Assembly: GCF_056746865.1 (NCBI RefSeq)
Contig: NZ_CM163382.1
DNA: 64,000 bases
Reading direction: 5' to 3' (one strand)
The notes under the pieces were generated by a model that made no database searches, was not told the origin of the DNA, and was given only the letters and a program-made list of their open reading frames with translations. This document shows, one piece after another, positions 23,145 through 64,000 of the stretch. Each line of letters starts with the position of its first letter. Position 1 is the stretch's first letter. Position numbers and translations under genes: made by a program.

Positions 23145-23918
<774 letters not shown>

Positions 23919-34927: not shown

Positions 34928-34939
34928 AAAGGAATAAGG

Positions 34940-41284: not shown

Positions 41285-41291
41285 TGATGAG

Positions 41292-41326: not shown

Positions 41327-41340
41327 ATAAAACTTACCGC

Positions 41341-44338: not shown

Positions 44339-44346
44339 CTAAATAC

Positions 44347-44362
44347 CTGTATATATCATCAG
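44347..44362. promoter_or_regulatory. Candidate LexA (SOS) box in the symE promoter
   Basis: CTGTATATATCATCAG matches the CTGT-N8-ACAG consensus with one mismatch, about 80 bp upstream of the symE start. Confidence 0.5.
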
Positions 44363-44496
44363 TAAATATGGGGAAAGTCCAGCTAAAAATAGAATAAAAT
44401 GGGCAATTTCTGGAATGATTTAAATATATTTATGTGGGTTATGATTGGCGTGAAATAATAAAAAGCGCACCGGAAAGGTGCGCCAGAAAATAATGT

Positions 44497-47477: not shown

Positions 47478-47677
47478 TGTGAGTTCCGTAAATTAAGCAG
47501 CGGCCCAAATTCATCGAGCCGCAGAAGAAGAAATTGCCGAGGGTAATATACACAAAATCATTCAGGTTGCATCAAGGCGGCAAGTGAGTGAATCCCCGGG
47601 AGCGTACAGAAGTACGTGACCGGGGTGAACGAGCGCAGCCAACGCAGAGGCAGCCTGAAGGATGAAGTGTATACGTG

Positions 47678-50600
47678 TCAGGCCAGCTCGTCCCAGATAT
47701 AATCGCTGAATTTGCCCAGCAGGGTATCGAGATTATCGTCAAAGGTTCTTTGCAGCATCGCCTTCCCGCCGCGACGGTGGAAGTTGCCGGTTTTGAAGAC
47801 ATCGTCGTCGAGCACCACTTTCTCTTTCAGCGCCTGCGCTAAACGATCGAGCCAGCTTAATTGCTCGCTGCTCCAGTCGTTTTCGCCCTTAATGCGCGTC
47901 AGCGCGTGATCGACACGTTCCTCAAACGGTTTCAGCGCATCGCCCACCGCAGCGCGGCGAATATGACCAATCAGCCGGGCGGCGATATCTTCATTGCGCG
48001 TCTCTTTCCATGCTTTGCGCAGGGAAGATTCCTCAAAGTGCTGGCGGTCAAACCACTCCTGTAGCTCGACCAGCCCTTTACGGGTGAGATCGCGCGGGCG
48101 ATTAATAACTGCCTGCAATGCCGGTTGCGCGTTCGGGGAACGTTGCACCAGCGAGTCAAAGGCTTCGAGGAAATCCTGCGGCGTGTCGTAATCACCGTAC
48201 AGCGATTTTACACTCACCACTTCATCGTCGATATCGAGGAAGATCGGCGCATCATTCAGGTTGTTGATGTCCGTTTTCAGCTTTTCCAGACGGGCGATAA
48301 AGCCAGGCAGTTTGTTAAAGACTTCGGCGCTCCAGTGCGGCCCTTTTTCCCGCAGGCGCGAGGCGAAGCCGTTAAAGCCCACCCCCGCCGCGTCCTGGCA
48401 TAGCTCATCCAGACGACGCACCTGTTTATCTATCGTTTCGCTGCGGTCACGGTTAAACGTGGCCAGGCCGATGATGCGCTGGAGCTTCGCCACCAGTTGT
48501 TCATGGCTGTGCTCGGCAAAACTGCGGCCATCCGCTTCGGTGATTTTATAGGTTTCTGAATCGGTAATTTCGTTGACCAGCGTTTGCAGCTCCACCTTAG
48601 GACGCACCACCACCGGACGCATGGTGTCGACGCTCTCCAGCGTGCTGTATATATCGACGCAGTCGAAAATCTTAAAGCTGGTTTTATTCACGTCCGGGCA
48701 CAAGCGCGTGGCGCGGCCTTTCATCTGCTCGTACAGAATACGGCTGCGTACTTTACGCAGGAACACGATGTTACAGATCGACGGAATATCGACGCCGGTC
48801 GTCAGCAGGTCGACGGTTACCACAATATTGGGCAGCCGCTCTTTATTGAAGCGGGTGATCATGGTCTGCACTTTGCGCGCGTCTTTATCGGCATCACCGG
48901 TGATCTTGATTATCGCGTCGTGCTCCAGTTGCGGATACTTTTTCTTGAACGCGGTACGCAACTCTTCCACCACCATATCGGCATGGGCATTGGTGACGCA
49001 GAAGACCAGCGTTTTTTGCGACCCGGTCGGGTCAAGGTAGTTGGTGAGTTCGTTACAGACGGCGCGGTTAAACGCCGGGATCACCAGGCCACGGTTAAAG
49101 TCGGCGACCTCAAAATCCTGATCGTCTTCCAGGGTGTCGTTGATTACTTCCCCCTGCGGGCTGATGCGCTCTACCTGTTCGCCTTTGGAGAGATAAACAC
49201 CCTCCTGTGCGTTGCGGGTGGTGATCTGAATTGGTGGATCCTGGTCGATCAGAAAACCGTCGATAACCGCGGTACGGTAGGTATAACGGTAAACCGGCTC
49301 GCCGAAAATCTGCACCGTATGCAACGCCGGGGTGGCGGTGAGGGCGATTTTTATCGCATCGAAGTGATCGAGAATGCGACGGTAGGCAGAGACATAATCC
49401 AGCTGGCTGCGGAACTGTAGTTCGCCTTCGGTCTGCTCTTTATCGAGAATATAGCCGCGATGCGCTTCATCGACGACGATACAGTCGTAACGGGCCACCG
49501 GCATCGGTTCATCTGATTGCAGGGTGCGTTTCACCAGCGACTGTACGGTGGCAACGTGAATTTTGGTGCTGTCTTCCGGGAATTTATCCGTCAGCCCTTT
49601 AATGTCGAAAATGCTGTTGAAGGTGTCGCCGTTAATACGCGTATCTTCAAACGCCCCCAGCGCCTGCTCGCCAAGAGAACGGCGATCCACAAGGAAGAGA
49701 ATGCGTTTAAAACGCTGGGACTGGATCAGGCGGAACATCATGGCAATTGCGGTGCGGGTTTTACCGGTACCGGTCGCCATCGCCAGCAGGATCTCTTGTT
49801 GACCCTTGACGATTGCCTTTTCCACCGCGCGGACGGCATCTTCCTGATAATAACGCAGGCCCAGCTCGCTCATGCCGGGATTATCGGCAAACCACTGATT
49901 CTGTTTTTGCGGTTCGCTGCCGAGCATTTCCAGCAGCTCTTCCGGGCGATGCCACTCGGGTAAGGCTTTCGACATATTGCGGGTATCACGCACGTCGCGA
50001 TACCAGATGCCACTTTTAGTCTTCATTGCTGCGCGGTATTCGCGCCCGTTGGTGGAGTAGCAGAAGGGGATTTTAAACCGTTGTTGGCCGCTGGAGTCCT
50101 GCCAGCTAGTTTCATACTCCGGCACCGCTTCATGCACTTCATCCGGTGAGTAGTGCTCAAGCAAGGTTTCCCGCAGGAAGCCATTATCGAAGCATTTACT
50201 GTAGCGATACGACTCATTGAGCTTGCCGGGAACGTCGATATTTTTACGTTTCGCCTCTACCACCGCGATGGGTTTGAGGCCGACAAACAGCACATAATCC
50301 GCAAAGCCCTGTTTACCCGTTTCATCTTTCCCGGTCGGCCATTCGGCAATGGCTTTATTGACGCCGGGTTCCGGGCGCGCGCCTTTGGAGAAGCGCAGGG
50401 TTTTGCTATCGGCCTGCCAGCCTGCTTTACGCAGTTGCGCATCAATCAGGAAGCGGCTCTCTTCTTCGCTAAGGTTGAGTGTGCGCTTGATGGCCTGATC
50501 GGTAATTTCTTTGTGGTAAGCCTTACGTTCCTGTTCAGTCTGTTTGGCCAGTTCCGCGTTCTTCTCGGCGAGCTGTGCTTCCAGCGCCGCAAGGCGAGCC

Positions 50601-51190
50601 TGGGTTTGCGCTTCTGTTTCCTGCTGTTTGCCTTCCAGAATAGCGATATAGCCGTTCAGGGCAACCAGCTTCTGCTGTTGCGCTTCGACTTCTGCCTGAG
50701 TCTGCGCTTTTTCTCGCACCTGCTGTTCAAGCTGTTGTTTTAGCGTCAGCACTTCCTGGTGATAGAGGTTCTCGCCACGTTCTGGTAACACAAACACCGG
50801 CACCGGGAAGTCATAATCTTTAGTGACCAGACGGTAGTACCAGACAGCCAGGCGGAACCCGAGTCGCAGGCACATCTGGGCATCGTCGAGATCGTTGTGA
50901 TATTCGTGCACCGCCTGGTTACCAATGCGGCGTAATTTGTGAAATACAGAGAGAATGTTGTCATCAACGAAGGCGATTTTGCCGAGTTCGCGCAGGAGAT
51001 CGTGTTGATTCTCACAAGGGGGGATGTTGAGTAACAGACCAAGATGTTTCGCTGTGGCTTCGCCAAACATACGCATTTTAATTAGCGTCGTGTTGGGATC
51101 ATCCGGGTAGTTATTTTCCGCCGCACAGGCGATGGCATAAGTGAAGTCGTTGACGCCCTTCAGGAATTCGAAGTTGGATTTATTCATCAT
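47678..51190 (-). CDS. hsdR: Type I restriction enzyme endonuclease/translocase subunit HsdR
   Basis: 1170 aa; SF2 helicase motifs (AMATGTGKT Walker A, DEAH-type VVDEAHRG) and an N-terminal nuclease region. Confidence 0.92.
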   Translation of the reverse strand: MMNKSNFEFLKGVNDFTYAIACAAENNYPDDPNTTLIKMRMFGEATAKHLGLLLNIPPCENQHDLLRELGKIAFVDDNILSVFHKLRRIGNQAVHEYHNDLDDAQMCLRLGFRLAVWYYRLVTKDYDFPVPVFVLPERGENLYHQEVLTLKQQLEQQVREKAQTQAEVEAQQQKLVALNGYIAILEGKQQETEAQTQARLAALEAQLAEKNAELAKQTEQERKAYHKEITDQAIKRTLNLSEEESRFLIDAQLRKAGWQADSKTLRFSKGARPEPGVNKAIAEWPTGKDETGKQGFADYVLFVGLKPIAVVEAKRKNIDVPGKLNESYRYSKCFDNGFLRETLLEHYSPDEVHEAVPEYETSWQDSSGQQRFKIPFCYSTNGREYRAAMKTKSGIWYRDVRDTRNMSKALPEWHRPEELLEMLGSEPQKQNQWFADNPGMSELGLRYYQEDAVRAVEKAIVKGQQEILLAMATGTGKTRTAIAMMFRLIQSQRFKRILFLVDRRSLGEQALGAFEDTRINGDTFNSIFDIKGLTDKFPEDSTKIHVATVQSLVKRTLQSDEPMPVARYDCIVVDEAHRGYILDKEQTEGELQFRSQLDYVSAYRRILDHFDAIKIALTATPALHTVQIFGEPVYRYTYRTAVIDGFLIDQDPPIQITTRNAQEGVYLSKGEQVERISPQGEVINDTLEDDQDFEVADFNRGLVIPAFNRAVCNELTNYLDPTGSQKTLVFCVTNAHADMVVEELRTAFKKKYPQLEHDAIIKITGDADKDARKVQTMITRFNKERLPNIVVTVDLLTTGVDIPSICNIVFLRKVRSRILYEQMKGRATRLCPDVNKTSFKIFDCVDIYSTLESVDTMRPVVVRPKVELQTLVNEITDSETYKITEADGRSFAEHSHEQLVAKLQRIIGLATFNRDRSETIDKQVRRLDELCQDAAGVGFNGFASRLREKGPHWSAEVFNKLPGFIARLEKLKTDINNLNDAPIFLDIDDEVVSVKSLYGDYDTPQDFLEAFDSLVQRSPNAQPALQAVINRPRDLTRKGLVELQEWFDRQHFEESSLRKAWKETRNEDIAARLIGHIRRAAVGDALKPFEERVDHALTRIKGENDWSSEQLSWLDRLAQALKEKVVLDDDVFKTGNFHRRGGKAMLQRTFDDNLDTLLGKFSDYIWDELA

Positions 51191-51377
51191 TGTTATTAAT
51201 CCATTGCTGTGTGGGCCTGTCCAAATATTTAAGGCCCATAACGTCTTATCTTAGCTTTCTGTACCTTTCCGGACAATGACCGGAGTCACAGCAACTGACT
51301 CATTTCTAACGTGTTCGTCTATTTTGGTAGTGTTATAGTAGCCGAAAAACATCTACCTGATTCTGCAAGGATGTACT

Positions 51378-52292
51378 ATGACGGTTCCTACCTATGACAA
51401 ATTTATTGAACCTGTTCTGCGTTATCTGGCGACAAAACCGGAAGGTGCAGCCGCGCGTGATGTTCATGAGGCTGCCGCGGATGCATTAGGACTGGATGAC
51501 AGCCAGCGAGCGAAAGTCATTACCAGCGGACAACTTGTTTATAAAAATCGTGCAGGCTGGGCACATGACCGTTTAAAACGTGCCGGGTTGTCGCAAAGTT
51601 TGTCGCGTGGCAAATGGTGCCTGACTCCTGCGGGTTTTGACTGGGTTGCGTCTCATCCCCAGCCAATGACGGAGCAGGAGACGAACCATCTGGCCTTCGA
51701 TTTTGTGAATGTCAAACTTAAGTCACGGCCGGATGCCGTCGATTTAGATCCGAAAGCCGACTCTCCCGATCATGAAGAACTAGCAAAGAGCAGCCCGGAC
51801 GATCGGTTAGATCAGGCGCTAAAAGAGCTTCGTGATGCGGTGGCTGATGAGGTTCTGGAAAACTTATTGCAGGTTTCTCCTTCGCGCTTTGAAGTCATTG
51901 TTCTGGATGTTTTGCATCGCCTGGGGTATGGCGGCCACCGTGATGATTTGCAGCGTGTTGGCGGTACTGGAGATGGTGGCATCGATGGTGTGATATCGCT
52001 TGATAAACTTGGCCTGGAGAAAGTTTATGTTCAGGCAAAACGTTGGCAGAACACTGTAGGCAGGCCAGAATTACAGGCATTTTACGGCGCACTGGCTGGG
52101 CAAAAGGCGAAACGTGGGGTGTTTATTACCACTTCTGGATTTACGTCTCAGGCGCGTGACTTTGCTCAATCCGTCGAGGGTATGGTGTTGGTTGATGGGG
52201 AACGCCTGGTGCACTTAATGATCGAAAACGAAGTAGGGGTTTCTTCACGTTTGTTGAAGGTGCCGAAACTGGATATGGACTATTTTGAGTGA
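51378..52292 (+). CDS. mrr: Modification-dependent (type IV) restriction endonuclease Mrr
   Basis: 304 aa; N-terminal winged-helix and C-terminal Mrr-cat PD-(D/E)XK region (...VYVQAKRW...); divergent from hsdR. Confidence 0.88.
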   Translation: MTVPTYDKFIEPVLRYLATKPEGAAARDVHEAAADALGLDDSQRAKVITSGQLVYKNRAGWAHDRLKRAGLSQSLSRGKWCLTPAGFDWVASHPQPMTEQETNHLAFDFVNVKLKSRPDAVDLDPKADSPDHEELAKSSPDDRLDQALKELRDAVADEVLENLLQVSPSRFEVIVLDVLHRLGYGGHRDDLQRVGGTGDGGIDGVISLDKLGLEKVYVQAKRWQNTVGRPELQAFYGALAGQKAKRGVFITTSGFTSQARDFAQSVEGMVLVDGERLVHLMIENEVGVSSRLLKVPKLDMDYFE

Positions 52293-52295
52293 AAT

Positions 52296-52340
52296 ATCAG
52301 GCCGGATGCGGCTGCGCCTTATCCGGCCCATAACCCCTTA
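52296..52340. repeat. REP element
   Basis: GGCCGGATGCGGCTGCGCCTTATCCGGCCCATAA REP-type palindrome between mrr and yjiA. Confidence 0.55.
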
Positions 52341-53294
52341 CTTCCTCAACCCCGCAAACGCCGCCCGAATCTCATCCTCCGGCAACTGAATCCCGATAAA
52401 CACCATCGTGCTATGCGGTTTTTCATCGCCCCACGGTCTGTCCCAGTCGGCGCTGTAGAGGCGCTGGACGCCCTGGAACAGCAGGCGGTTAGCTTCGCCG
52501 TCAATCCACAGCATCCCTTTGTAACGCAGCAGTTTATCCGCCGATTCCAGCAGCAGGTTTTCCATCACGCGGGAAACTTCGCTGATATCTACCGGGTAAT
52601 CCAGTTCCACCACAATCGACGAAATATCGTTTTGTTTATCCGCGATAAAGTGGAAACGCGGTTTGGTGCTGACGACGTTCTCTTCCAGCATAAAACCGTT
52701 GGTGTTGAACAGCAGGCCCAGGTCGATGTCGCCGTGGGTAACGGTGTAGACCGGTGCACGGGCGTTGATGCGCGCCAGGCGTTCGCGCAGTTTTTCTGCT
52801 TCGCCTGCGACGTCGGTTTTAGTCAGCAGAATACGGTCGGCGTAGCCAACCTGTGACTGGGCGATGGTGAACTGGTTCATCTGCTCATCGGCATGTACCG
52901 CATCCACCAGCGCAATCACGCCGTCCAGCAGGTAACGCTGGCATAAAATCTCATGGGAGAAAAAGGTCTGAATAATCGGGCCGGGATCGGCCATGCCGGT
53001 GCATTCAATGACCAGACGGTCGAACTGAATATTGCCCTTGTCGAGATTATCCAGCAGGTCGAGTAGCGCGTCCTCCAGCTCGTTGGAGCGCGAACAGCAG
53101 ATGCAGCCGTTGGTCAGCGTTTTGATCTGCGTGGCGCGGTCACCAATCAGTTGATCATCAACGGAGACTTCGCCGAATTCGTTTTCAATCACGGCAATCT
53201 TGTAGCCGTGTTGTTCGTTAAGAATATGGCGCAGCAGGGTGGTTTTGCCCGCGCCTAAAAAACCGGTGAGTAGGGTAACTGCAATCGGGTTCAT
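52338..53294 (-). CDS. yjiA: COG0523-family metal-chaperone GTPase YjiA
   Basis: 318 aa from MNPIAVTLLTGFLGAGKTTLL (P-loop) with a CxCC-type metal-binding motif (GCICCS); the track ORF is extended 28 codons upstream. Confidence 0.88.
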   Translation of the reverse strand: MNPIAVTLLTGFLGAGKTTLLRHILNEQHGYKIAVIENEFGEVSVDDQLIGDRATQIKTLTNGCICCSRSNELEDALLDLLDNLDKGNIQFDRLVIECTGMADPGPIIQTFFSHEILCQRYLLDGVIALVDAVHADEQMNQFTIAQSQVGYADRILLTKTDVAGEAEKLRERLARINARAPVYTVTHGDIDLGLLFNTNGFMLEENVVSTKPRFHFIADKQNDISSIVVELDYPVDISEVSRVMENLLLESADKLLRYKGMLWIDGEANRLLFQGVQRLYSADWDRPWGDEKPHSTMVFIGIQLPEDEIRAAFAGLRK

Positions 53295-53304
53295 GCTCTC
53301 TCCA

Positions 53305-53508
53305 TTAACAACAGCGCATACCGCCTTTACCATCGCCGCCGTAGCGCGCGTTCTGGCGTTCGCGGAAGAATTCTTCATAGCTCATGTACGGCTTGTCGGG
53401 ATGGTTGGTCTTCATATGCTCGACGTAGTTGTCGTAGTCTGGAATGCCAATCAACATCTTCGCCGCCTGGCCGAGATATTTTTTTGCCTGTCCTAAGTTA
53501 CCAAACAT
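53305..53508 (-). CDS. yjiX: Small DUF466-family protein YjiX (CstA/BtsT-associated)
   Basis: 67-aa ORF immediately downstream of btsT, ending in a Cys-rich tail (...[11 protein letters not shown]). Confidence 0.75.
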
Positions 53509-53557
53509 AGTTCACTCTGATAAGAACAAAGCCCCGCCGAAGCGGGGCTAAACACGG

Positions 53558-55708
53558 TTAGTGGTGCGAAGAGATCTTCACGCCGCCTTCCGGGATTGGA
53601 ACGTACGGTGTTTCTTTGTCAGTACGTTTGTCGCTGTTACGCACCTTCAGCCAGGTTTTGAAACCGTAGAAGATGATGCTGTACACCACAATCAGGAACA
53701 GAATACTCAGGCCCGCGTTGGTGTAGTTGTTCACAACAATGTGGTTCATGTTGGCAATCTGCTGCGCCGTCAGGTCAGTACCGTTAGCAATCTTCTCTTT
53801 GTACTGGCTTGCCATGTAGAAGAAGCCTTCCATCTGTGGGTTGGTGCTGAACAGTTTCAGACCCAGTGCCCAGGTGGTGCAGATAAGCAGCCATACAGCC
53901 GGAACAACGGTAACCCAGATGTATTGGGTGCGCTTCATCTTAATCAGCACAACGGTGCCCAGTACCAGCGCCACGGCTGCCAGCATCTGGTTGGAGATAC
54001 CGAACAGCGGCCACAGGCTCTTAACGCCGCCCAGCGGATCGACCACGCCCTGATACAGCAGGTAGCCCCACAGACCCACACAGCCCGCAGTACCGATGAT
54101 ACCGGCAACCAGAGAGTCGGTTTTTTTCAGGAACGGGATGAAGTTACCCAGCAGGTCTTGCAGCATAAAGCGGCCAGAACGGGTACCCGCATCCAGCGCG
54201 GTCAGGATGAACAGGGCTTCGAACAGAATACCGAAGTGATACCAGAAGCCCATGTCAGCCATCGGCAGCACTTTGTGGAACACATGAGCGATACCTACCG
54301 CCAGCGTCGGCGCACCACCTGCACGGTTCAGGACAGAAGGCTCACCAATGTCTTTCGCGGTTTGCAGGATCTGCTCTGGCGAAATCACGAAGCCCCAGGA
54401 GCTGACGGTTGCCGCCGCGTGTGCGGTAACGTCTTTCAGCTGCGCCATGATGATCGGCGCGTTCTCGCCACCCATTTCATGCAGGTTAGGCATGGTGATG
54501 CCAAGGCCAGCAGGCGGGGTATTCATCGCGAAGTAAAGACCCGGTTCGATGATGGACGCAGCAACCAGCGCCATAATCGCCACGAAGGACTCCATCAGCA
54601 TTGCGCCGTAGCCAATGAAACGCGCGTCGGTTTCATTAGCCAGCAGTTTCGGCGTCGTACCGGAAGAGATCAGCGCGTGGAAGCCAGATACCGCACCACA
54701 GGCGATGGTGATGAACAGGAACGGGAACAGAGCGCCTTTCCACAGCGGGCCAGTACCGTCAATGTACTGGGTCATCGCAGGCATTTTCAGTTCCGGGTTC
54801 AGCACCACGATACCCAGCGCCAGGCCGACGATAACGCCGATTTTCAGGAAGGTTGCCAGATAGTCGCGCGGTGCGAGGATCAGCCACACCGGCAGCAGTG
54901 CGGAAACAAACGCATAGCCAATCAGCGCGAAGGTAATGGTGGTGTCTTTAAAGGTCAGTGCCGGACCCCAGTACGGATCGTGAGCAATCACGCCACCGAA
55001 GTAGATAGAGGCAACCAGCAGCACGATACCAATGACAGAGACTTCACCCACACGCCCCGGACGGATAAAGCGCATGTAGATACCCATAAACAGCGCAATC
55101 GGTACGGTTGAGCAAACGGTGAAAACACCCCACGGGCTTTCGGCCAGGGCTTTAACCACAATCAGCGCCAGGACGGCAAGGATGATGATCATGATTAAGA
55201 AACAGCCAAACAGCGCGATAGTCCCCGGTACTGGTCCCATCTCTTCTTTGATCATCTCACCGAGAGATGCGCCGTTACGGCGAGAGGAGATAAACAGCAC
55301 CATAAAGTCCTGTACCGCACCGGCCAGTACTACCCCCGCCAGCAGCCACAGCGTGCCAGGTAGGTAGCCCATCTGCGCGGCGAGAACCGGACCAACCAGC
55401 GGACCAGCACCGGCGATAGCGGCGAAGTGGTGACCAAACAACACGTAACGGTTGGTCGGAACGTAGTTCAGACCGTCGTTGTTAATAACCGCAGGCGTCG
55501 CGCGCGTGGGGTCGAGTTTCATCACCTTCTGGGCGATGTACAAACTGTAGTAGCGATACGCCACCAGATACACCGACACAGAGGCGACCACGATCCACAG
55601 GGCGCTGACGTGCTCCCCCCGACGTAATGCAACTACCGCGAGGCAGAATGCACCGATGATTCCGAGAATCACCCAGGGTATGTGCTTGAATAGTTTTTTC
55701 GTATCCAT
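53558..55708 (-). CDS. btsT: CstA-family pyruvate:H+ symporter BtsT (YjiY)
   Basis: 716 aa from MDTKKLFKHIPWVILGIIGAF; large polytopic CstA-family membrane protein. Confidence 0.88.
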   Translation of the reverse strand: MDTKKLFKHIPWVILGIIGAFCLAVVALRRGEHVSALWIVVASVSVYLVAYRYYSLYIAQKVMKLDPTRATPAVINNDGLNYVPTNRYVLFGHHFAAIAGAGPLVGPVLAAQMGYLPGTLWLLAGVVLAGAVQDFMVLFISSRRNGASLGEMIKEEMGPVPGTIALFGCFLIMIIILAVLALIVVKALAESPWGVFTVCSTVPIALFMGIYMRFIRPGRVGEVSVIGIVLLVASIYFGGVIAHDPYWGPALTFKDTTITFALIGYAFVSALLPVWLILAPRDYLATFLKIGVIVGLALGIVVLNPELKMPAMTQYIDGTGPLWKGALFPFLFITIACGAVSGFHALISSGTTPKLLANETDARFIGYGAMLMESFVAIMALVAASIIEPGLYFAMNTPPAGLGITMPNLHEMGGENAPIIMAQLKDVTAHAAATVSSWGFVISPEQILQTAKDIGEPSVLNRAGGAPTLAVGIAHVFHKVLPMADMGFWYHFGILFEALFILTALDAGTRSGRFMLQDLLGNFIPFLKKTDSLVAGIIGTAGCVGLWGYLLYQGVVDPLGGVKSLWPLFGISNQMLAAVALVLGTVVLIKMKRTQYIWVTVVPAVWLLICTTWALGLKLFSTNPQMEGFFYMASQYKEKIANGTDLTAQQIANMNHIVVNNYTNAGLSILFLIVVYSIIFYGFKTWLKVRNSDKRTDKETPYVPIPEGGVKISSHH

Positions 55709-56100
55709 AGTAAAACCTGGCATTTTACTCGTCGTCTTTTGGCTTACAGGTGCGGCAGCTGCGTTCGTTCACCTCTGACACTTACTGTTGTAAGCTCCCG
55801 GGGATTCACTCACTTGCTGCCTTCCTGCAAACCAAAATCCATAGAGTAATTTGTTAATCATAGGCCGAAGCCGTTCTAGGTTTGCGTTGCGTTTGAGGAG
55901 GTAAATTGACCGCTATCCTGCAGTGATGTTGCCAGAGATACGCGCGCGTAAAGTAAGGTAAATAACTGAGTGGTTATTTTAGGGATGTAAGCGGTCAGGA
56001 ATGGCGGTGAGCGGTTGGGCAAGAATTATTCATCGGGTGGATATGTGATTGAGATCACAATAAAAATGCCCCTTCGACGAATGCGTGAAGGGGCTGGAGC

Positions 56101-56613
56101 TTAAATCGCAGCTTCCATTTCCAGCATCACCGGATGGAAACGGCGTTTAAAGTAGATAAGTCCGTGACCTTCTGCACTGAGGATGATGTTTTTAATCTCC
56201 ACCAGATACACCAGATGTGTGCCAATTGCCTGCACATCGCGGATCTCACCTTCAAGACTGGCCAGCGAACCTTTTAGCACCGGCTGCGCCAGCGGACCTT
56301 TTTGCCAGCATGAGAGGCTAAAACGCTCTTCCATCGCCATGCCTGTCATGCCCGCGAAGTGGCGTGCCATCAGTTCCTGCTCATGGTTGAGGACGTTGAC
56401 GCACAACTTGCCGTTGCCCTGAAAAACCGGGTTCATCGCACTGTTGGCGTTAATGCACACCATCAGCGACGGTGGTGTATCCGTGACCGAGCAGACAGCC
56501 GTTGCCGTAATCCCGCATTGTCCGGTGTCGCCCTCGGTGGTGATAATATTTACCGCTGCCGACAGGCTGGCCATCGCGTCACGAAAGCGCAGGCGTTGTT
56601 CATCTAATTGCAT
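56101..56613 (-). CDS. hpaC: 4-hydroxyphenylacetate 3-monooxygenase, flavin:NADH reductase component HpaC
   Basis: 170-aa flavin-reductase-family protein directly downstream of hpaB. Confidence 0.88.
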   Translation of the reverse strand: MQLDEQRLRFRDAMASLSAAVNIITTEGDTGQCGITATAVCSVTDTPPSLMVCINANSAMNPVFQGNGKLCVNVLNHEQELMARHFAGMTGMAMEERFSLSCWQKGPLAQPVLKGSLASLEGEIRDVQAIGTHLVYLVEIKNIILSAEGHGLIYFKRRFHPVMLEMEAAI

Positions 56614-56630
56614 CTTAACCTCCTGCTGCG

Positions 56631-58193
56631 TTATTTCAGCAGCTTATCCAGCATGTTGATATCGTCGTTGTTGTGCAGGTGCGGCACAGTCCAGCCGTTC
56701 TGGTCGTATTCCGACAGGCAGCGATCAACCATCGCCATCATCTTGTCCATATTGCCGGAGCTTTGTGCCTGGCGCAGACACTGCAGGCGAATCTCATCCT
56801 GGCTACCGGAGTAGTTGATTTCATACAGTTCGTGGCGACCACCAAACTCGCTGCCAATGGCGTCCCACATCAGTTTGAGGATCTTGATGCGCTGGACGTG
56901 ATCCATACCATTCGAACCGCGCACATACTTCGCCAGATACTGGTCGATCTGCGGATTGTTCAGGTCACGGGCACTGGAAGGGAGGTAGATCAGGCCACTG
57001 GTAACGTTGCGTTCGATAATGTTTTTGATCTTCGCGTAGGCCATTGGTGCCAGTACGCGATAGGTTTGCAGTGCGGCATGATCCGGTAAATAAGCCCCGT
57101 TGACCCACGGCGTCGCTTCAGAACACATCGAGTCACTCAATGCCCAGAAGGTGTTGCGCCACGCCACCACTTCACCGAGATCGGCCTGCACACCACGGAA
57201 CTCCAGGGTGCCGGTACATTCGAGTGATTTTTTCAGCAGTGCCGTAATGAAGTCGAGTTTCACTGCCAGGCGCACACAGGCTTGCAGCGGATACATACGG
57301 GCAAAACCGCCTTCCATCGTCCAGCGACGGCAGCGATCAAAATCGCGGTAGATCAGCACGTTTTCCCATGGGATCAGCACGTTATCCATCACCAGAATCG
57401 CATCATTCTCATCGAAGCGGCTGGAGAGCGGGTAGTCATACGGTGAGCCGGTAGCACCCGCGACCATCTCATAAGAGGCGCGGGAGATTAATTTCACGCC
57501 ATCAGCATCCATTGGCGCAACGAACATCAGCGCGAAGTCCGGGTTTTCGCCCATTACTTGTGCCGAGCCGAAGCCAACCATGTTGTAGTGAGTCAGCGCC
57601 GAGTTGGTGGCAACCACTTTCGCACCGCTAACGATAATCCCGGCGTCAGTCTCTTTTTCCAGCTTGATGTAAACGTCTTTCACTTTATCGGTCGGCAAAT
57701 GACGATCGATCGGTGGGTTAACAATCGCGTGGTTAAAGTAGAGGCCAGTTTCCTGAATACGGGTATACCAGTTACGGGCGTTCTGCTCGAACTGACCGTA
57801 AAAGCCCGGATTCGCGCCCAGTGCGCAACCGAAAGCAGCTTTGTAGTCTGGGGTACGGCCCATCCAGCCATAGCTCAGGCGTGACCACTCAGCGATGGCG
57901 TCGCGTTGCTGGCGCAGGTCGTCGGCACTTTTCGCCACGCGGAAGAATTTATGGGTATAGCCGCCGCTGCCGGTGTCGGTGTTCCAACACAGAGAGTCCT
58001 GCATCTCCGGTTTGTGCAGCGCGTCGTACAGTTGGGCAACAGACGCTGCCGCATTACGAAATGCCGGATGAGTAGTGACGTCTTTCACTCGCTCGCCATA
58101 GATATAGATCTCGCGACCATCCTGCAGGCTTTTCAGATACTCTTCCCCGGTGAACGGACGTTGGGTACTGGCGCGGAAATCTTCTGGTTTCAT
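56631..58193 (-). CDS. hpaB: 4-hydroxyphenylacetate 3-monooxygenase, oxygenase component HpaB
   Basis: 520-aa two-component FADH2-dependent monooxygenase-family protein (MKPEDFRASTQRPFTGEEYLKSLQDGREIYIYGERV...). Confidence 0.9.
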   Translation of the reverse strand: MKPEDFRASTQRPFTGEEYLKSLQDGREIYIYGERVKDVTTHPAFRNAAASVAQLYDALHKPEMQDSLCWNTDTGSGGYTHKFFRVAKSADDLRQQRDAIAEWSRLSYGWMGRTPDYKAAFGCALGANPGFYGQFEQNARNWYTRIQETGLYFNHAIVNPPIDRHLPTDKVKDVYIKLEKETDAGIIVSGAKVVATNSALTHYNMVGFGSAQVMGENPDFALMFVAPMDADGVKLISRASYEMVAGATGSPYDYPLSSRFDENDAILVMDNVLIPWENVLIYRDFDRCRRWTMEGGFARMYPLQACVRLAVKLDFITALLKKSLECTGTLEFRGVQADLGEVVAWRNTFWALSDSMCSEATPWVNGAYLPDHAALQTYRVLAPMAYAKIKNIIERNVTSGLIYLPSSARDLNNPQIDQYLAKYVRGSNGMDHVQRIKILKLMWDAIGSEFGGRHELYEINYSGSQDEIRLQCLRQAQSSGNMDKMMAMVDRCLSEYDQNGWTVPHLHNNDDINMLDKLLK

Positions 58194-58443
58194 GTCGACC
58201 TCTACAGTATTAATCGGAATACGATTGTTAATTTTGTGTGTTGTTTTTGTTATTCAATTGAAGCTTGCAGGGGCGATTACGGGAAGAGACTTTTGGGACA
58301 ATGGCTGGTACTTTTCAGGTCGGGTACGGTTTTGTGATCGAGGTCGCTTTTAGCGATTTTTGACGTTACTAAATCCCCTTGCTCCAGGCGGAGAAAGGGG
58401 AATAGCAGGTGGTGCCTGGTTTCCCGTTAAGGCTAAGGGATTT

Positions 58444-59334
58444 TCACGTCACAGGTACTTTTTTGGCACGATAAGCACTGGGCGAGCAACCGACTAAGCG
58501 ATAAAAAAAGCGCGCAAAATAAGCCGGATCCTTAAAACCGAGTTGCCAGGCAATATTGTTCACGGCGTTATCAGAAAACAGCAGCAGCCGCTTGGCTTCT
58601 CGCAGCTGCCTGTCGAAAATCAACCGTTTTGGCGGACGGTTGGCAAAGCGACGGCAGATGTCCGTGAGTCGTGATTCGGTGATATGCAGTTCGTTAGCGT
58701 AATCCGGTACTGTCCAGTGCTGATGAAAATGGCTTTCAATCAGCATATGAAAACGCTGGAACAGTTTTAATTCTCCGCGCATCCCGCTGGCGGCATGGTC
58801 GTCGAGTTTTGCGTTACGCAGCAGTAGGGTGAACACTGCCTGTGCCAGGAGCGTCAGGGTGTGTTCCCGTCCAGGCAGTTGTTCCACCGATTCCCGCTCT
58901 ATCAGTTGCCAATAGTGTTCCAGCGCCGCCAGTTCGTCGGGTTTATCTGCCAGTGACAGGCAAATCCCCGGCAGGCCGAAGGTTTCCCGAGTGCCCGGAT
59001 ACAGAACTTCCAGCAGGGGCCAGATCAGATCTTCCCGTACCGTCAACACATGACCGTCGGCGTCAGACTCCGTAATAAACGCATGAGGTACTGACGGCGG
59101 CGTCAGGACAAACAGGGGCGCTTCCACCGAGTAGCGATGATCGTCAAGCTGTAGCTCAATCTGTCCGCTATTGAGGAAATGCATCTGAAAGTACTGTTCG
59201 TGGCGATGTGGCAGCATATGGCGGCCAAAAAATGCCGCCATGCGGGCGAACGACTGATAATGCACATCGTCCGTACCCAGGCTTTCATCGTACTCTTTGC
59301 TGATATCAATATTGGCAATCTGACGGTCACGCAT
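58444..59334 (-). CDS. hpaA: AraC/XylS-family activator of hpaBC, HpaA
   Basis: 296 aa with C-terminal AraC-type HTH; sits upstream of hpaBC. Confidence 0.85.
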   Translation of the reverse strand: MRDRQIANIDISKEYDESLGTDDVHYQSFARMAAFFGRHMLPHRHEQYFQMHFLNSGQIELQLDDHRYSVEAPLFVLTPPSVPHAFITESDADGHVLTVREDLIWPLLEVLYPGTRETFGLPGICLSLADKPDELAALEHYWQLIERESVEQLPGREHTLTLLAQAVFTLLLRNAKLDDHAASGMRGELKLFQRFHMLIESHFHQHWTVPDYANELHITESRLTDICRRFANRPPKRLIFDRQLREAKRLLLFSDNAVNNIAWQLGFKDPAYFARFFYRLVGCSPSAYRAKKVPVT

Positions 59335-59343
59335 CGTCGTTCC

Positions 59344-60720
59344 TTACGGGGTCGCTCGCGGACGGGAGGACTGCATTGGAATCGCCCAGATAATCCCCGC
59401 ACCAATCACCAGCAGCGCGGCAACAAACCACAATCCACTGTTAAAGCTGCCGGTCAGATCTTTCAACCAGCCGATCATAAACGGACTTAATGCTGAACCA
59501 ATGTTGCCAGTGGCGTTGATCACCGCAATACCGATCGCTCGTGCCCGCAGGCTGATGGACTGATCCGGTGTTGTCCAGAAAATCGCCATTGCGCTGAATG
59601 ATCCGGTCGAAGCCATAATGATCCCCAGCATCTGGATCATGTTGTGATCAGTTGCCGAAGCCAGTAACCAACCAGCGGCAGCGAACAAATAAGGAAGGGC
59701 GGTGTGATGCCTTCGTTCCTGGCGGTGATCTGAGTGACGGCTCCAGTAAATCATCCCGAGAATGGTACAAATCTGCGGTACGGCGGCCAGCAGGCCGATG
59801 GTGATATTACTGCTGCCCTGATTAAAGCTTTGCAGGATCTGCGGTGTCCAGATGCTGATCGCACTAAGTGTGTTGGTCAGGCAGAAATACGCCAGGGTAT
59901 ACATCATCACCACCGGAGTGAAGATCTCCCGCCACATGCTGCGTTGTTGCATGGCGTGGTGGCTGATGGCTCCCTCTGGCTGAACCAGCGTCAGACGATC
60001 GTTATCCATCATCTCTTGCAGGCATTTTTTGTCTTCTTTCGTCAGCCACTTAGCTTTGTCCGGTGAGTCATCAAGCCAGAACCACACCATGATGCCGAGT
60101 AATACCGACGGGAAGCCTTCCAGCAAAAACAGCCACTGCCAGCCTTTTAATGCCATTACGCCATCCAGCGACAAAATGTAGCCGGAAACGATCGATCCCA
60201 ACGCTGTCGTTACCGGCATTGCCACCATAAACAAGGCGTTGGCACGGGCGCGGAAATAGGCCGGAAACCAGAAGGTTAAATACAGCAGAATGCCAGGCAG
60301 AAAGCCGGCTTCGGTAATGCCAACCAGTATACGCAGTACGTACAAGCTGGTGGGGCCAGTGGCAAACATGGTGGCAGTAGAGGCGATGCCCCAAAGCACC
60401 ATGATGGTGGCGATCCAGCGCCGCGCACCGACAATACTCAGCATAATGTTGCTGGGAATGCCGAAGATGACATAAGCGGCGTAGAACAGGGTGGTGGCGA
60501 GGCCAAACATGGTGGCGCTCAGACCGAGGTCGCGTCCCATCGTGAGTCCGGCAAAGCCGATGTTGATGCGATCAAGGAACGAGAAGATAAACAGCACGAA
60601 CAGAAAGACGATCAGGCGGCGAAACAGCTTCTTAATAACCGCCTGTTGTCCGGCAGTCAGCGCTTTATGCTGATTCGCCGGATCGATACTCTCCGGTATG
60701 GCAGGTGAGGTGTCGCTCAT
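59344..60720 (-). CDS. hpaX: 4-hydroxyphenylacetate MFS permease HpaX
   Basis: 458-aa 12-TM MFS protein from MSDTSPAIPESIDPANQHKAL; the track ORF has a 20-codon upstream extension. Confidence 0.82.
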   Translation of the reverse strand: MSDTSPAIPESIDPANQHKALTAGQQAVIKKLFRRLIVFLFVLFIFSFLDRINIGFAGLTMGRDLGLSATMFGLATTLFYAAYVIFGIPSNIMLSIVGARRWIATIMVLWGIASTATMFATGPTSLYVLRILVGITEAGFLPGILLYLTFWFPAYFRARANALFMVAMPVTTALGSIVSGYILSLDGVMALKGWQWLFLLEGFPSVLLGIMVWFWLDDSPDKAKWLTKEDKKCLQEMMDNDRLTLVQPEGAISHHAMQQRSMWREIFTPVVMMYTLAYFCLTNTLSAISIWTPQILQSFNQGSSNITIGLLAAVPQICTILGMIYWSRHSDHRQERRHHTALPYLFAAAGWLLASATDHNMIQMLGIIMASTGSFSAMAIFWTTPDQSISLRARAIGIAVINATGNIGSALSPFMIGWLKDLTGSFNSGLWFVAALLVIGAGIIWAIPMQSSRPRATP

Positions 60721-60764
60721 TTTTCTTCCTCTAATGGGATTTTTGTAGGGTACGACAAGGTTTA

Positions 60765-60894
<130 letters not shown>

Positions 60895-60900
<6 letters not shown>

Positions 60901-61683
60901 CACGTCGGGCTTAATCGCTGTAGCCTGCGCACCAAACCGTGCTGCCAGCGCTTCGGCGGCGCGGGCGAGCAGGGTGGTGTCAACGCCGACGGCGACAAAC
61001 AGCGCGCCCAGTTCCAGATAGCGTTTTGCCAGTTGCTCATTGGCGATCAGGATCCCCGGCGCTTTGCCCGCTTCGCGGATCTGCACGATCGCCTGCTCAA
61101 TCGCGGCCTGTACTTCCGGGTGCTGAGGATTACCGGCATAACCCATATCGGCGCTCAGATCCGCCGGGCCGATAAACACGCCGTCGACCCCTTCCACGTC
61201 CAGAATCTGCGGTAAGTTCTTCATTGCCTCACGCGTTTCGATCTGCACCAGCACGCACATTTGATCGTTGGCTTTTTGCAGGTAATCAGGAATACGATTC
61301 CAGCGCGAGGCTCGGGCCAGCGCACTGCCCACACCGCGAATACCGGCGGGGGGATAACGGGTGGCGCGTACCGCTTCACGGGCTTCGTCAGCGTTTTGAA
61401 CCATCGGCACCAGTAAGGTTTGTGTGCCGACATCCAGCAGTTGTTTGATTTGCACCGGATCGTTCCACGACGGACGTACCACCGGCTGGCTGGGGTAGGG
61501 CGCAATCGCCTGTAGCTGGGTGAGCACGGTTTGCACGTTATTCGGCGCGTGCTCACCGTCGATCAATAACCAGTCGAATCCTGCTCCGGCCAGTAACTCT
61601 GCGCTGTAGCTGCTACTTAGCCCCAGCCATAATCCGATCTGCGGGCGGCCTGCTTTCAGCGCCGCTTTAAAACTGTTTTCCAT
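60895..61683 (-). CDS. hpaI: 4-hydroxy-2-oxoheptanedioate (HpcH/HpaI) aldolase
   Basis: 262 aa from [48 protein letters not shown] (HpcH/HpaI aldolase family); the track ORF is extended upstream into the REP cluster. Confidence 0.88.
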
Positions 61684-61693
61684 CGTTCTCTCC

Positions 61694-62497
61694 TTAAACA
61701 AAGCGGCAGCTAATGGAGCCCATGTTGCCGTAATCGACGTGGAAGGTATCGCCCTTACGCGCCGGAACCGGGCGGGTGAACGAACCGCCGAGAATGATTT
61801 GCCCGGCTTCCAGTTGTACGTCATACGGTGCGAGTTTGTTCGCCAGCCAGGCCACGCCGTTTGCCGGATGATTTAGCACACCAGCGGCGACGCCAGTTTC
61901 TTCAATCACGCCATTGCGATACATCAGGGCGGAGATCCAACGCAGATCCAGTTCGTCTGGTTTGATCGGACGACCGCCGAGGATCACTCCGGCGTTGGCG
62001 GCGTTATCAGAAATGGTGTCGAACACTTTGCGCGGGCGCTGGGTTTCCGGATCGATGTTGTGGCAGCGGGCGTCGATCAGCTCCAGCGCCGGGATCACGT
62101 AGTCCGTGGCGTTGTAGACGTCGAACAGCGTGCAGTTTGGCCCACGCAGCGGTTTTGCCAGCACAAAAGCCAGCTCCACTTCAATGCGCGGCACGATAAA
62201 GCGATCGGTCGGGATATCGCTGCCATCGTGGAAGAACATGTCGTCCAGCAATGCACCGTAATCTGGCTCGCTGATTTGTGAGCTGGCCTGCATCGCTTTC
62301 GAGGTCAGGCCGATTTTGTGGCCTTTCAGCGTGCGGCCTTCGGCGATTTTCAGTCGGACCCATTCGCGCTGTACGGCGTAGGCGTCTTCAATGGTGATCT
62401 CCGGGTAATCCAGCGAGATCGCGCGGATCTGTTCACGCTGTTTTTCTGCCTGATCCAGACGCTGGGCGATCAGGGTGTGGGTGTGTTTATCGAACAT
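61694..62497 (-). CDS. hpaH: 2-oxo-hept-4-ene-1,7-dioate hydratase HpaH
   Basis: 267 aa from [31 protein letters not shown]/hydratase family; position within the hpa meta-cleavage operon. Confidence 0.85.
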
Positions 62498-62514
62498 AGC
62501 GATATCCTGTGGCA

Positions 62515-62550
62515 TTGCCGGATGCGGCTGCGCCTTATCATCCAGCCTGG
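62515..62550. repeat. REP-like element
   Basis: GCCGGATGCGGCTGCGCCTTATC REP-type sequence between hpaH and hpaF. Confidence 0.45.
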
Positions 62551-62564
62551 AAGCTGGTGCAAAT

Positions 62565-62945
62565 TTATTTAAACAACGCGTGTACGTTGTTCTGTTTGAA
62601 ATTCAACGTCGGGTGCAGCTCTGCAATCTCAAATGAAAGCGCCAGGTAACGGCTCTCCATCAGTGAGGCGAAGTGCGTTTTAATCAGATCAAACAGCATT
62701 TCGCCTACTTCCTGACGGCTTTCCAGACTGCGCCCGCTGCCGATTTTTAGCGTCATATGCACAAAGGCGTAATCGTGCTTGCCATCAGCCATTTGCCAGG
62801 TATCGATCCAGTGTGCCCGGCTACGTATTCCCCCAAGCGGAAAAATCCCCGTCGCCGCCAGTGCGGTGTTAACACTGGCAAACAGCTCAGGTAAGCGGGC
62901 TTCTTGACGAATATTTTCAGTACATTCCACGATAAAGTGCGGCAT
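62565..62945 (-). CDS. hpaF: 5-carboxymethyl-2-hydroxymuconate isomerase HpaF
   Basis: 126-aa tautomerase-like protein with N-terminal [12 protein letters not shown]. Confidence 0.85.
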
Positions 62946-62954
62946 GGTTTTTCC

Positions 62955-63806
62955 TTACGCGGGAAGCGGGAAAACAGCGTTAACCTGACCAGTGCCAGAG
63001 CTTGGGAACAGCTCGGTAATAAACTCCACCTTGCCGTCGTATTTATCCCAGCCGAGCATCCCCAGCAGCATCACCGTGTCGTGCATATTGCCTTCGCCGT
63101 AGCAGTAGTCGGCGTACTCCGGCAGCATATTGCAGAACTCTTTGAACTGGCCTTCGCGCCACAACTTCACCACGCGCTCGTCCATCTGGCGGTCGAACTC
63201 GCGGGTGTAGCTGTTCATCCCTTCTTCCGCACGCTGATCGTCAATAAAGCGGTGCGATAACGAACCGCTGGCAAGGACCGCCACGGTGCCGTCGTACTGT
63301 TCGATCGCTTTCAGAATCGCTTCGCCCAGCTTGCGGCTGTCGGCAAAATCATGAACGGTACAGAATGCGGAGATGGAGACCACTTTGAAGTGCTTGTCTT
63401 CATTCATGTAGCGCATCGGCACCAGCGTGCCGTATTCCAGTTTCAGGCTGGGAATATTGTGCGCTTTTGCCCGCACGCCGAGCTTTAAGGCTTCATCGGC
63501 AATAAGCTGCCCCAACTCCGGGTTGCCCTCGTAGTTGTAGGTCATGTCACGAATAAAATGCGGCAGCTCGTTACTGGTGTAGACGCCTTCAAAATGGTCT
63601 GCACAGTTGATGTGATAAGCACTGTTGACCAGCCAGTGGGTATCGAAAACGATAATGGTATCGACGCCCATTTCCCGGCAACGCTTGCTGATCTCTTTAT
63701 GCCCGTCGATCGCGCCCTGGCGGCAACCGTGGTTTTTCCCTGGCAGTTCAGAGAGATACATCGACGGTACGTGCGTGATCTTGGCGGCTAACGCTAACTT
63801 ACCCAT
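62955..63806 (-). CDS. hpaD: 3,4-dihydroxyphenylacetate (homoprotocatechuate) 2,3-dioxygenase HpaD
   Basis: 283-aa extradiol dioxygenase class III (LigB-type) protein. Confidence 0.88.
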   Translation of the reverse strand: MGKLALAAKITHVPSMYLSELPGKNHGCRQGAIDGHKEISKRCREMGVDTIIVFDTHWLVNSAYHINCADHFEGVYTSNELPHFIRDMTYNYEGNPELGQLIADEALKLGVRAKAHNIPSLKLEYGTLVPMRYMNEDKHFKVVSISAFCTVHDFADSRKLGEAILKAIEQYDGTVAVLASGSLSHRFIDDQRAEEGMNSYTREFDRQMDERVVKLWREGQFKEFCNMLPEYADYCYGEGNMHDTVMLLGMLGWDKYDGKVEFITELFPSSGTGQVNAVFPLPA

Positions 63807-63807
63807 A

Positions 63808-64000
63808 TCAGACTCCCCATTTCGGAATTGGATGGTCGCCCATGGAAATGCAGACGTTCTTCATTTCCGCGAACACTTCGAAGCTGTACTCACCGCCTTC
63901 ACGCCCGGTGCCGGAGGCTTTTACGCCGCCAAATGGCTGGCGCAGGTCACGCACGTTCTGGGTGTTGACGAACACCATGCCTGCTTCAATGCCACGCGCC
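63808..64000 (-). CDS. hpaE: 5-carboxymethyl-2-hydroxymuconate semialdehyde dehydrogenase HpaE, 3' end only (gene continues beyond the window)
   Basis: Minus-strand frame ending in a TGA stop at 63808-63810, 1 nt from the hpaD start; the fragment has aldehyde-dehydrogenase C-terminal character. Truncated by the window edge. Confidence 0.7.
   Translation of the reverse strand, partial: ARGIEAGMVFVNTQNVRDLRQPFGGVKASGTGREGGEYSFEVFAEMKNVCISMGDHPIPKWGV

Follow-up and report, generated by a model that had tools for sequence, protein, structure and literature searches.

Positions 56101-64000 of the window, by which we mean the whole 64,000-nucleotide stretch analysed, hold hpaC, hpaB, hpaA, hpaX, hpaI, hpaH, hpaF, hpaD and the end of hpaE, all on the minus strand and as listed in the first-pass annotation. 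These genes serve the catabolism of 3- and 4-hydroxyphenylacetate (3-/4-HPA), compounds which arise in the gut from tyrosine and flavonoid breakdown and the use of which is known to differ between phylogroups. HpaX is an importer of 3- or 4-HPA, and the two-component flavin monooxygenase HpaBC converts both to 3,4-dihydroxyphenylacetate; HpaD then opens the ring by extradiol cleavage, and the product is taken to pyruvate and succinic semialdehyde via HpaE, HpaF, HpaG, HpaH and HpaI. HpaA activates hpaBC, and HpaR represses hpaGEDFHI. Each of the eight complete genes is full length and is matched end to end by an NCBIfam equivalog model above the curated cut-off:

56101-56613, minus strand: hpaC, flavin reductase component of 4-HPA 3-monooxygenase; NF012030, 384 bits (cut-off 315), residues 1-170 of 170
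56631-58193, minus strand: hpaB, oxygenase component of 4-HPA 3-monooxygenase; TIGR02310, 1109 bits (cut-off 885), full length
58444-59334, minus strand: hpaA, AraC/XylS-type activator; TIGR02297, 385 bits (cut-off 275)
59344-60720, minus strand: hpaX, MFS 4-HPA permease, of type X1 as opposed to X2; TIGR02332, 890 bits (cut-off 615)
60895-61683, minus strand: hpaI, 4-hydroxy-2-oxoheptanedioate aldolase; TIGR02311, 434 bits (cut-off 369)
61694-62497, minus strand: hpaH, 2-oxo-hept-4-ene-1,7-dioate hydratase; TIGR02312, 465 bits (cut-off 352)
62565-62945, minus strand: hpaF, 5-carboxymethyl-2-hydroxymuconate isomerase, the allele shared with BL21; NF011605, 264 bits (cut-off 215)
62955-63806, minus strand: hpaD, 3,4-dihydroxyphenylacetate 2,3-dioxygenase; TIGR02298, 550 bits (cut-off 316)
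63808-64000, minus strand, cut by the window edge: 3' end of hpaE (CHMS dehydrogenase), a 63-aa fragment corresponding to TIGR02299 positions 426-487 of 488

Across positions 47101-64000 the sequence is 100% identical to that of E. coli FDAARGOS_497, in which hpaE, hpaG and hpaR come directly next, hpaE being complete and hpaG and hpaR annotated as intact; the prediction that hpaG and hpaR would be met shortly after the window end is thus borne out in genomes identical over the stretch. Taking the window and this identical genome together, the meta-cleavage genes run hpaG, E, D, F, H, I on one strand, and the AraC-type regulator hpaA, the MarR-type regulator hpaR (from the identical genome) and the transporter hpaX are all present. 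Prieto, Diaz and Garcia reportedly described the cluster of E. coli W in 1996 as hpaBC, hpaGEDFHI, hpaR, hpaA and hpaX. The window cluster has the same eleven-gene set, order, orientation and tsr-adjacent position as the E. coli W hpa and E. coli C hpc genes, and outside hpaF it is ~97-99% identical to the clusters of E. coli C and BL21. It differs from the W and C systems in nothing of substance, the window copy having the BL21-type rather than the C-type hpaF, and it is an already-known, ordinary E. coli system.

No inactivating mutation, which the first-pass annotation had said would count against its reading, was found in the hpa genes, and HpaB keeps Arg379 in sequence comparison, a residue required for 3-HPA use (PMC7201708). 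Judged from the intact genes and this residue, the cluster would in all likelihood confer growth on 3-/4-HPA, and the source is a non-K-12 E. coli that in all likelihood uses both compounds. Some decay of the neighbourhood is seen in lgoT, which lies near the cluster, outside the window, and is a pseudogene in the identical genome; this could point to a non-functional, decaying hpa remnant, but with all eight complete genes above their equivalog cut-offs, Arg379 kept, the remaining genes annotated as intact in the identical genome and no sign of decay within the window, we regard such a remnant as highly improbable.

Several predicted structures lie at the ends of these genes, together with the core gene btsT, which flanks the cluster on its left, 392 bp from hpaC:

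53558-55708, minus strand: btsT, pyruvate/H+ symporter, left flanking core gene (from the annotation of the identical genome), 97% identical to K-12 btsT
56044-56059: CRP-like palindrome TGTGA-N6-TCACA upstream of btsT, located by comparing the junctions of the K-12, hpa, O157 and LR-28 alleles
56060-56094, minus strand: terminator-like hairpin immediately downstream of hpaC, GCCCCTTC...GAAGGGGC with a U-run after it, from direct folding
58194-58443, minus strand: hpaA-hpaB intergenic region, with a hairpin after hpaA, from the sequence

The 64-nt segment 56040-56103 folds at -22.8 kcal/mol (z -5.5; none of 200 shuffles reached this stability), a fold in which the CRP-like palindrome makes up a second hairpin. 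The hairpin after hpaC is a predicted intrinsic terminator. It was missed by a scan for consensus promoters and terminators because its loop exceeds the limit of that scan, which returned fewer sites than in shuffled sequence. Just downstream of hpaA, the 87-nt segment 58360-58446 folds at -28.6 kcal/mol (z -2.8), and the region that contains most of it is presumably, going by the E. coli W system, the site of the HpaA-dependent hpaBC promoter.

The cluster is present in 2071 of 5426 complete E. coli genomes (~38%). Its locus, btsT (yjiY)-hpa-tsr, is empty of it in K-12: on alignment, btsT directly adjoins tsr in MG1655, with zero hpa genes. The first-pass annotation had stated this absence, and also the presence of the cluster in strains B, C and W; E. 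coli C and the B strain BL21 indeed carry it at the same place, and published genome comparisons put it here in E. coli W as well (PMC3032704, PMC7201708). The order tsr-hpaR-hpaGEDFHI-hpaX-hpaA-hpaBC-btsT is common to Enterobacter, Lelliottia, Citrobacter and Pseudocitrobacter. Within E. coli the btsT-tsr gap has at least four alleles, namely a K-12-type 133-bp filler (2752 genomes), hpa, an O157-type ORF (366 genomes) and a D-amino-acid cluster (195 genomes), and the contents found between these same limits in the conserved flanks measure, from shortest to longest, 133 bp, 0.8 kb, 5.9 kb and 11.3 kb. The boundaries are fixed, from just past the CRP-like site of btsT to just before the tsr promoter, where a promoter-like TAAAGTTT-N11-GCCGAAAA is found. 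The offset of the CRP-like palindrome is constant in all four gap alleles, and divergence between alleles begins about there; by its match to the consensus it is a candidate CRP site.

The K-12-type allele, which lacks hpa, is both old and widespread, and is found in a B2 strain at 95% identity. When the K-12 filler was compared with the ends of the hpa, O157 and LR-28 inserts, only the CRP-like site was shared, which gives no clear sign that the filler was left behind by a deletion of hpa. Like the multi-allelic replacement sites ('hotspots') known in E. coli, the gap has at least four contents, the same boundaries and no mobility genes; it differs from them in that its boundaries fall at regulatory sequences belonging to its two neighbours, the CRP-like site of btsT and the promoter-like sequence of tsr. 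No description of the btsT(yjiY)-tsr locus as a hotspot was found in the searchable literature, which covers part of the literature.

The cluster had been read in the first-pass annotation as an insertion that sets the strain apart. An island of this kind, gained horizontally not long ago and confined to this lineage, would fit the lack of hpa in K-12 and in ~62% of complete E. coli genomes, its absence from representatives of other Escherichia species, the published surveys, which found hpa in phylogroups A, B1 and C and not in B2 or G, and the presence of segments 92-98% identical to Pseudocitrobacter. However, a cluster shared by more than two thousand genomes does not mark an unusual strain, and the position is occupied likewise in several other genera. 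The annotation of the identical genome has no integrase, transposase or tRNA here, and side-by-side junction sequences lack flanking direct repeats, so that neither mobility genes nor tRNA/direct-repeat junctions are present; nor is the composition atypical, the G+C content of the cluster being 54.5% compared with 56% for the neighbouring core gene btsT. Divergence between clusters within E. coli is ~1-5%, similar to that of the flanking btsT, and the hpa-less filler allele shares the boundaries. Taken with these observations, a recent island seems improbable; the cluster is one among four or more alleles, each an alternative filling of a single gap with fixed boundaries. As a scan of the genus Escherichia found hpa in E. 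coli-named genomes only, a part of the species may long ago have acquired the cluster from a neighbouring genus through recombination in the shared flanks.

Repetitive extragenic palindromic (REP) units had been placed by the first-pass annotation at 60765-60900 and 62515-62550, and these are real and correctly located to within 1-2 nt; the description of the cluster as 'laced with' them is overstated, there being just two sites in 7.9 kb:

60764-60898: cluster of three REP units, from the hpaI stop to the hpaX leader, identified from the sequence, repeats D2, I16 and I17, the 34-mer match and the fold
60764-60798, plus orientation: first unit of this cluster, degenerate
60817-60850, plus orientation: second unit, canonical, the 34-mer
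60865-60894, inverted: third unit, abutting the hpaI stop codon (60895-60897)
62517-62551: second site, a single degenerate unit between hpaF and hpaH, its hpaF-proximal half altered

The canonical unit, GCCGGATGCGGCGTAAACGCCTTATCCGGCCTAC, is palindromic and extragenic, stands at gene 3' ends and is repeated elsewhere in the window, with a second copy of the 34-mer at 13728-13761 (0 matches expected in shuffles). The elements have the marks of REPs, being imperfect palindromes of ~35 nt that fit the GCCGGATG...CATCCGGC(CTAC) consensus, extragenic and present in many copies per genome: the 7.9-kb sequence used as a query matched 125,683 places in 5425 genomes (median 21 per genome having any match), and we attribute the matches in genomes without the cluster to REPs. 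In Rfam, the REP-derived family naRNA4 was hit at these units below threshold only. At the first site, units 2 and 3 are inverted about a 14-nt linker, whereas units 1 and 2, 52 nt apart, form a direct repeat; as two of the three units are thus direct rather than alternating in orientation, the cluster does not look like a textbook BIME.

The number of REP copies between hpaX and hpaI differs among E. coli strains, this gap being 51 bp shorter than in the window in BL21 (about one unit fewer) and 105 bp shorter in RM9975. The second site, in contrast to E. coli REPs generally, consists of one unit only, the decayed remnant of a REP, whose fold is not significant (z -0.8, no better than shuffles); in Pseudocitrobacter the corresponding position, aligned with it, has 1.5 to 4 canonical REPs. 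The occupants of the two gaps vary with the genus and may be classic REPs, GCCGGGTAAGCG-type REPs, CCCTCTCCC/GGGAGAGGG-type repeats or ERIC; in some genera the equivalent gaps are empty, at 9-21 bp. Since the repeat families differ by genus, the repeats look like later, secondary colonists, and the window REPs would be ordinary extragenic repeats that have settled in two permissive gaps. As mRNA, the three-unit cluster (191 nt, 60715-60905) folds at -70.3 kcal/mol (z -4.45), most likely into a stable 3' hairpin after the hpaI stop. Going by the general behaviour of REPs and this predicted fold, it may act as a stabiliser and attenuator, which would protect the meta-operon mRNA and cut read-through into hpaX-hpaA. 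A literature search on the hpaX promoter and REPs gave nothing relevant. At the ERIC-like element, Rfam returned V_AS5 below threshold only.

Set against other genomes, the cluster is a mosaic: its segments differ in their history and have been exchanged between lineages, and most of their limits fall at gene junctions. One such pattern is seen in hpaF, which occurs as two types of 80% nucleotide identity in 987 and 1084 genomes (~48:52), with no intermediates; this dimorphism extends from within the single REP (62540) to the hpaF/hpaD spacer (62951). Low identity in hpaF as a result of weak constraint only was considered and rejected, given that the flanking genes are 95-98% and hpaF 80-82% identical to Pseudocitrobacter vendiensis (nucleotide), and that the hpaF of E. 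coli C is Pseudocitrobacter-like (93%). The hpaX-hpaA segment is likewise of two types, with ~67-69% identity, and the rare divergent type has an extra MBL-fold hydrolase gene and no REPs; this rare segment runs to 60930, which is 36 nt past the REP cluster. Tracts of high identity to Pseudocitrobacter (92-98%) form a third pattern within the cluster, and against P. vendiensis the mismatch density jumps at ~60900-60960 and ~62520.

All three of these independent patterns have boundaries at or next to REP gaps, and to this extent the earlier suggestion that the REPs may mark recombination scars stands. That recombination assembled or reshuffled the cluster at the REP units, leaving them as scars or using them as active sites, with REP gaps delimiting exchangeable cassettes, is nevertheless unlikely. 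The boundaries at 58316 (hpaB-hpaA gap), 62946-62951 (9-bp spacer) and ~66120 (inside hpaG) have no REP, the outer junctions are also free of them, and the boundaries sampled are a handful, all but one of which are plain gene junctions, so that what matters may be the gene boundary and not the REP. In other genera the genes stand in this same order and the gaps carry unrelated repeats or none, which argues that gene order is independent of REPs. We would likewise advance only tentatively the proposal that the cluster is kept as exchangeable cassettes with old, divergent alleles, the repeat-colonised gaps being preferred limits of recombination tracts, including those of exchange with Pseudocitrobacter. 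Considering the locus as a whole, it is very probable that this is the classical, intact E. coli hpa cluster at its usual btsT-tsr site, not a mobile island, with REPs as ordinary colonists and a mosaic history.

As side results of modest interest, the cluster illustrates how a catabolic operon can be pieced together from alleles that differ greatly in age, and it offers a concrete place for testing whether REP arrays limit recombination tracts. The hpaF product of the window is close, not identical, to the solved E. coli C enzyme 1OTG (~85%, counted on a printed alignment), and its N-terminal proline is kept.

The hpa (4-hydroxyphenylacetate catabolic) cluster is represented in window 56101-64000 by nine ORFs, all on the minus strand, which correspond to hpa genes annotated in E. 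coli FDAARGOS_497. This genome is 100% identical to window 47101-64000 and differs by four SNPs in the first 47 kb.

hpa genes in the window, each defined by an ORF and the FDAARGOS_497 annotation
56101-56613, minus strand, hpaC
56631-58193, minus strand, hpaB
58444-59334, minus strand, hpaA
59344-60720, minus strand, hpaX
60895-61683, minus strand, hpaI
61694-62497, minus strand, hpaH
62565-62945, minus strand, hpaF
62955-63806, minus strand, hpaD
63808 to window end, minus strand, hpaE (3' end)

Every complete hpa product matched an NCBIfam equivalog model end to end above the curated cut-off, and the 63-residue fragment at the window end matched as the HpaE C-terminus. The first-pass annotation had gene list, order and strand correct. 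Its prediction of hpaG and hpaR just past the window also holds, FDAARGOS_497 continuing with hpaE, hpaG, a divergent hpaR and then tsr. HpaB has Arg379, which is needed for use of 3-hydroxyphenylacetate and not of 4-hydroxyphenylacetate (Kim et al., PMC7201708). Further on in FDAARGOS_497 (locus L001), the tsr annotation (20297-21928) is 24 nt shorter than that of K-12, and lgoT (21977-23338), interrupted by an internal stop, is a pseudogene.

The hpa pathway and its regulation are textbook knowledge, and the cluster here is an already known, ordinary system. The K-12 MG1655 locus has no hpa cluster, btsT directly adjoining tsr, and E. coli C and BL21 carry it at the same place as here. The eleven-gene cluster has been described as missing from K-12, unlike W, B and Crooks (Archer et al., PMC3032704), and an APEC study detected hpaB in phylogroups C, A and B1 and found none in B2 or G (PMC12444784). 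That the source is not K-12 had been rightly deduced, which says little because 2071 of 5426 complete E. coli genomes (~38%) have the cluster.

On the left, btsT lies 392 bp from the cluster. Alignment to K-12 places the left limit of common sequence at window 56014 and the right limit immediately before a promoter-like TAAAGTTT-N11-GCCGAAAA of tsr, with 11,321 bp between them here versus 133 bp in K-12. Identical limits bound all four alleles of this gap, which leave 42 genomes unaccounted for.

Alleles of the btsT-tsr gap
L002 (K-12) 5464-5596, 133-bp K-12-type filler, 2752 genomes
Window 56015 onward, hpa allele, 2071 genomes
L003 (O157) 6593-7414, 822-bp O157-type allele with one hypothetical ORF, 366 genomes (O157:H7 and relatives)
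L004 (LR-28) 6593-12505, 5.9-kb D-amino-acid utilisation cluster, 195 genomes

The D-amino-acid allele encodes an amino acid deaminase, D-aminoacylase, RidA, a sodium:solute symporter and an RpiR regulator, and the K-12-type filler also occurs, at 95% identity, in the B2 strain NU14. A CRP-like palindrome, TGTGA-N6-TCACA, stands at the same offset in all four (here 56044-56059); most alleles diverge from each other beyond it, whereas the hpa and D-amino-acid alleles share similar sequence that reaches into the hairpin stem on the hpaC side. Bacteria were scanned with HpaI, one genome for each species, and a tblastn map then gave the order tsr-hpaR-hpaGEDFHI-hpaX-hpaA-hpaBC-btsT for several species of Enterobacter, for Lelliottia, for one Citrobacter and for Pseudocitrobacter; btsT is likewise adjacent to hpa in Klebsiella, Raoultella and another Citrobacter. 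Since several genera share this order, the position is, by comparison of sequences, native to the family, and the variation within E. coli appears to reflect replacement of alleles through recombination in conserved flanks. The cluster had been called an insertion, a wording that finds no support: the cluster annotation has neither mobility genes nor a tRNA, its junctions show no direct repeats, its G+C (54.5%) is near that of btsT (56%), and several genera have it in the same position. Among Escherichia, E. coli alone came up in the scan, given which part of E. coli may have re-acquired hpa long ago.

Upstream, window 31637-47000 holds a restriction/defence run (mcrBC, symE, hsdSMR, mrr); ahead of this run lie yjiT, of 3.3 kb, and a DEAD/DEAH helicase gene of 6.3 kb. 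On the hsd/mrr side, O157 and LR-28 have different neighbours, and the whole neighbourhood is therefore variable.

Within its limits the cluster is clearly a mosaic, as judged from three patterns of identity. Some 50 genomes match less than 80% of an hpaX-REP-hpaI query, and in both of the two examined (L005 and L006, 5605-9000) window 58317-60930, comprising hpaA, hpaX and the REP cluster, is swapped for a 3.4-kb segment of 67-69% identity, without REPs and with a 21-bp hpaI-hpaX gap. In this rare form an additional gene, for an MBL-fold metallo-hydrolase, separates hpaA from hpaB, and its product has a 77% relative in Salmonella arizonae; the HpaX is like that of Enterobacter/Lelliottia (~90% aa) and the HpaA like that of Pluralibacter (81%). 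Secondly, hpaF is dimorphic in E. coli, with 987 genomes of C-type, 1084 of the window type and no intermediates; the two alleles share 80% nucleotide identity, and they diverge over a patch that begins at 62540, within the lone REP of the hpaH-hpaF gap, and stops at 62951, in the 9-bp spacer between hpaF and hpaD. C-type hpaF is 93% identical to that of Pseudocitrobacter, and the solved CHMI structure 1OTG is of the E. coli C type, not the window type. Thirdly, against P. vendiensis, hpaI-hpaH (92-96%) and hpaD-hpaE-3'hpaG (96-98%) contrast with hpaX, hpaF, 5'hpaG and btsT (only 80-88%), with jumps at ~60900-60960, 62520, 62940-63000 and 66120. In the two Pseudocitrobacter loci (L008, L010) these segments of 60900-66120 show 92-98% nucleotide identity versus 84-88% for flanking btsT, which indicates recent exchange with E. 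coli.

The region had been described as laced with REPs; both sites are real, although the wording was generous, no others being present in the hpa region.

REP units in the hpa region
60764-60798, unit 1, degenerate, hpaX-hpaI gap (60721-60894)
60817-60850, unit 2, canonical, same gap
60865-60894, unit 3, inverted, same gap, ending at the hpaI stop codon
62517-62551, single decayed unit, hpaH-hpaF gap (62498-62564)

The canonical 34-mer had zero chance matches in shuffles and has a second copy at 13728-13761. As mRNA, the 191-nt stretch 60715-60905 around the three units has a predicted fold of -70.3 kcal/mol (z -4.45), with one long hairpin formed by units 2 and 3; the single hpaH-hpaF unit folds no more stably than shuffled sequence. 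Where the gene order is shared, genera differ in the repeat family found in the two gaps, and some clusters have none there.

Repeats in the two gaps
E. coli, Pseudocitrobacter, Citrobacter: classic REPs, 1-4 units
Lelliottia, Raoultella: GCCGGGTAAGCG-type REP
Enterobacter, Klebsiella: CCCTCTCCC/GGGAGAGGG-type repeats
Serratia: ERIC
Other clusters with the same gene order: no repeat, 9-21 bp gap

The hpaF-hpaH gaps of Enterobacter and Klebsiella (L012, L016, L020) contain one to four copies of a ~100-120 nt repeat, CCCTCTCCC...GGGAGAGGG...GGGTGAGGG, occupying the gap where E. coli has its REP. Within E. coli itself hpaX and hpaI are 174, 123, 117, 69 or 21 bp apart, and hpaH and hpaF 67 or 110 bp. 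On these comparisons, the two gaps are permissive sites repeatedly colonised by repeats.

The suggestion that REPs mark recombination scars finds partial support, in that each of the three mosaic patterns has one boundary at or beside a REP gap. A specific role for REPs seems unlikely, as the outer junctions of the cluster are REP-free, equally sharp boundaries fall at repeat-free junctions and one inside hpaG, and the gaps vary in length within E. coli and in repeat content across genera of unchanged gene order. On the simplest reading, boundaries track the junctions between genes, where sequence that is variable or non-homologous brings recombination tracts to an end; REPs would then be residents of these junctions, not the cause of the boundaries.

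REPs in general are described as shielding mRNA from 3' exonucleases and cutting read-through. A stable hairpin directly 3' of the last meta-cleavage operon gene would protect that mRNA from 3' exonucleases and, standing after hpaI, would reduce read-through into hpaX-hpaA. In clusters with the other type of hpaX (X2), the hpaI-hpaX gap is 9-21 bp and repeat-free, which suggests tight co-transcription across it.

A further repeat, a 127-bp ERIC-like element with core GTAAGCTCCCGGGGATTCAC (window 55724-55850), lies 15 nt before the start codon of btsT. K-12, O157, LR-28 and strain 19KM1831 lack it, and the remaining hpa-positive strains that were examined have it. It has a weak Rfam match to V_AS5, and its predicted fold as an mRNA leader is one long hairpin (-54 kcal/mol, z -5.2). 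The element could influence translation of btsT or the stability of its mRNA.
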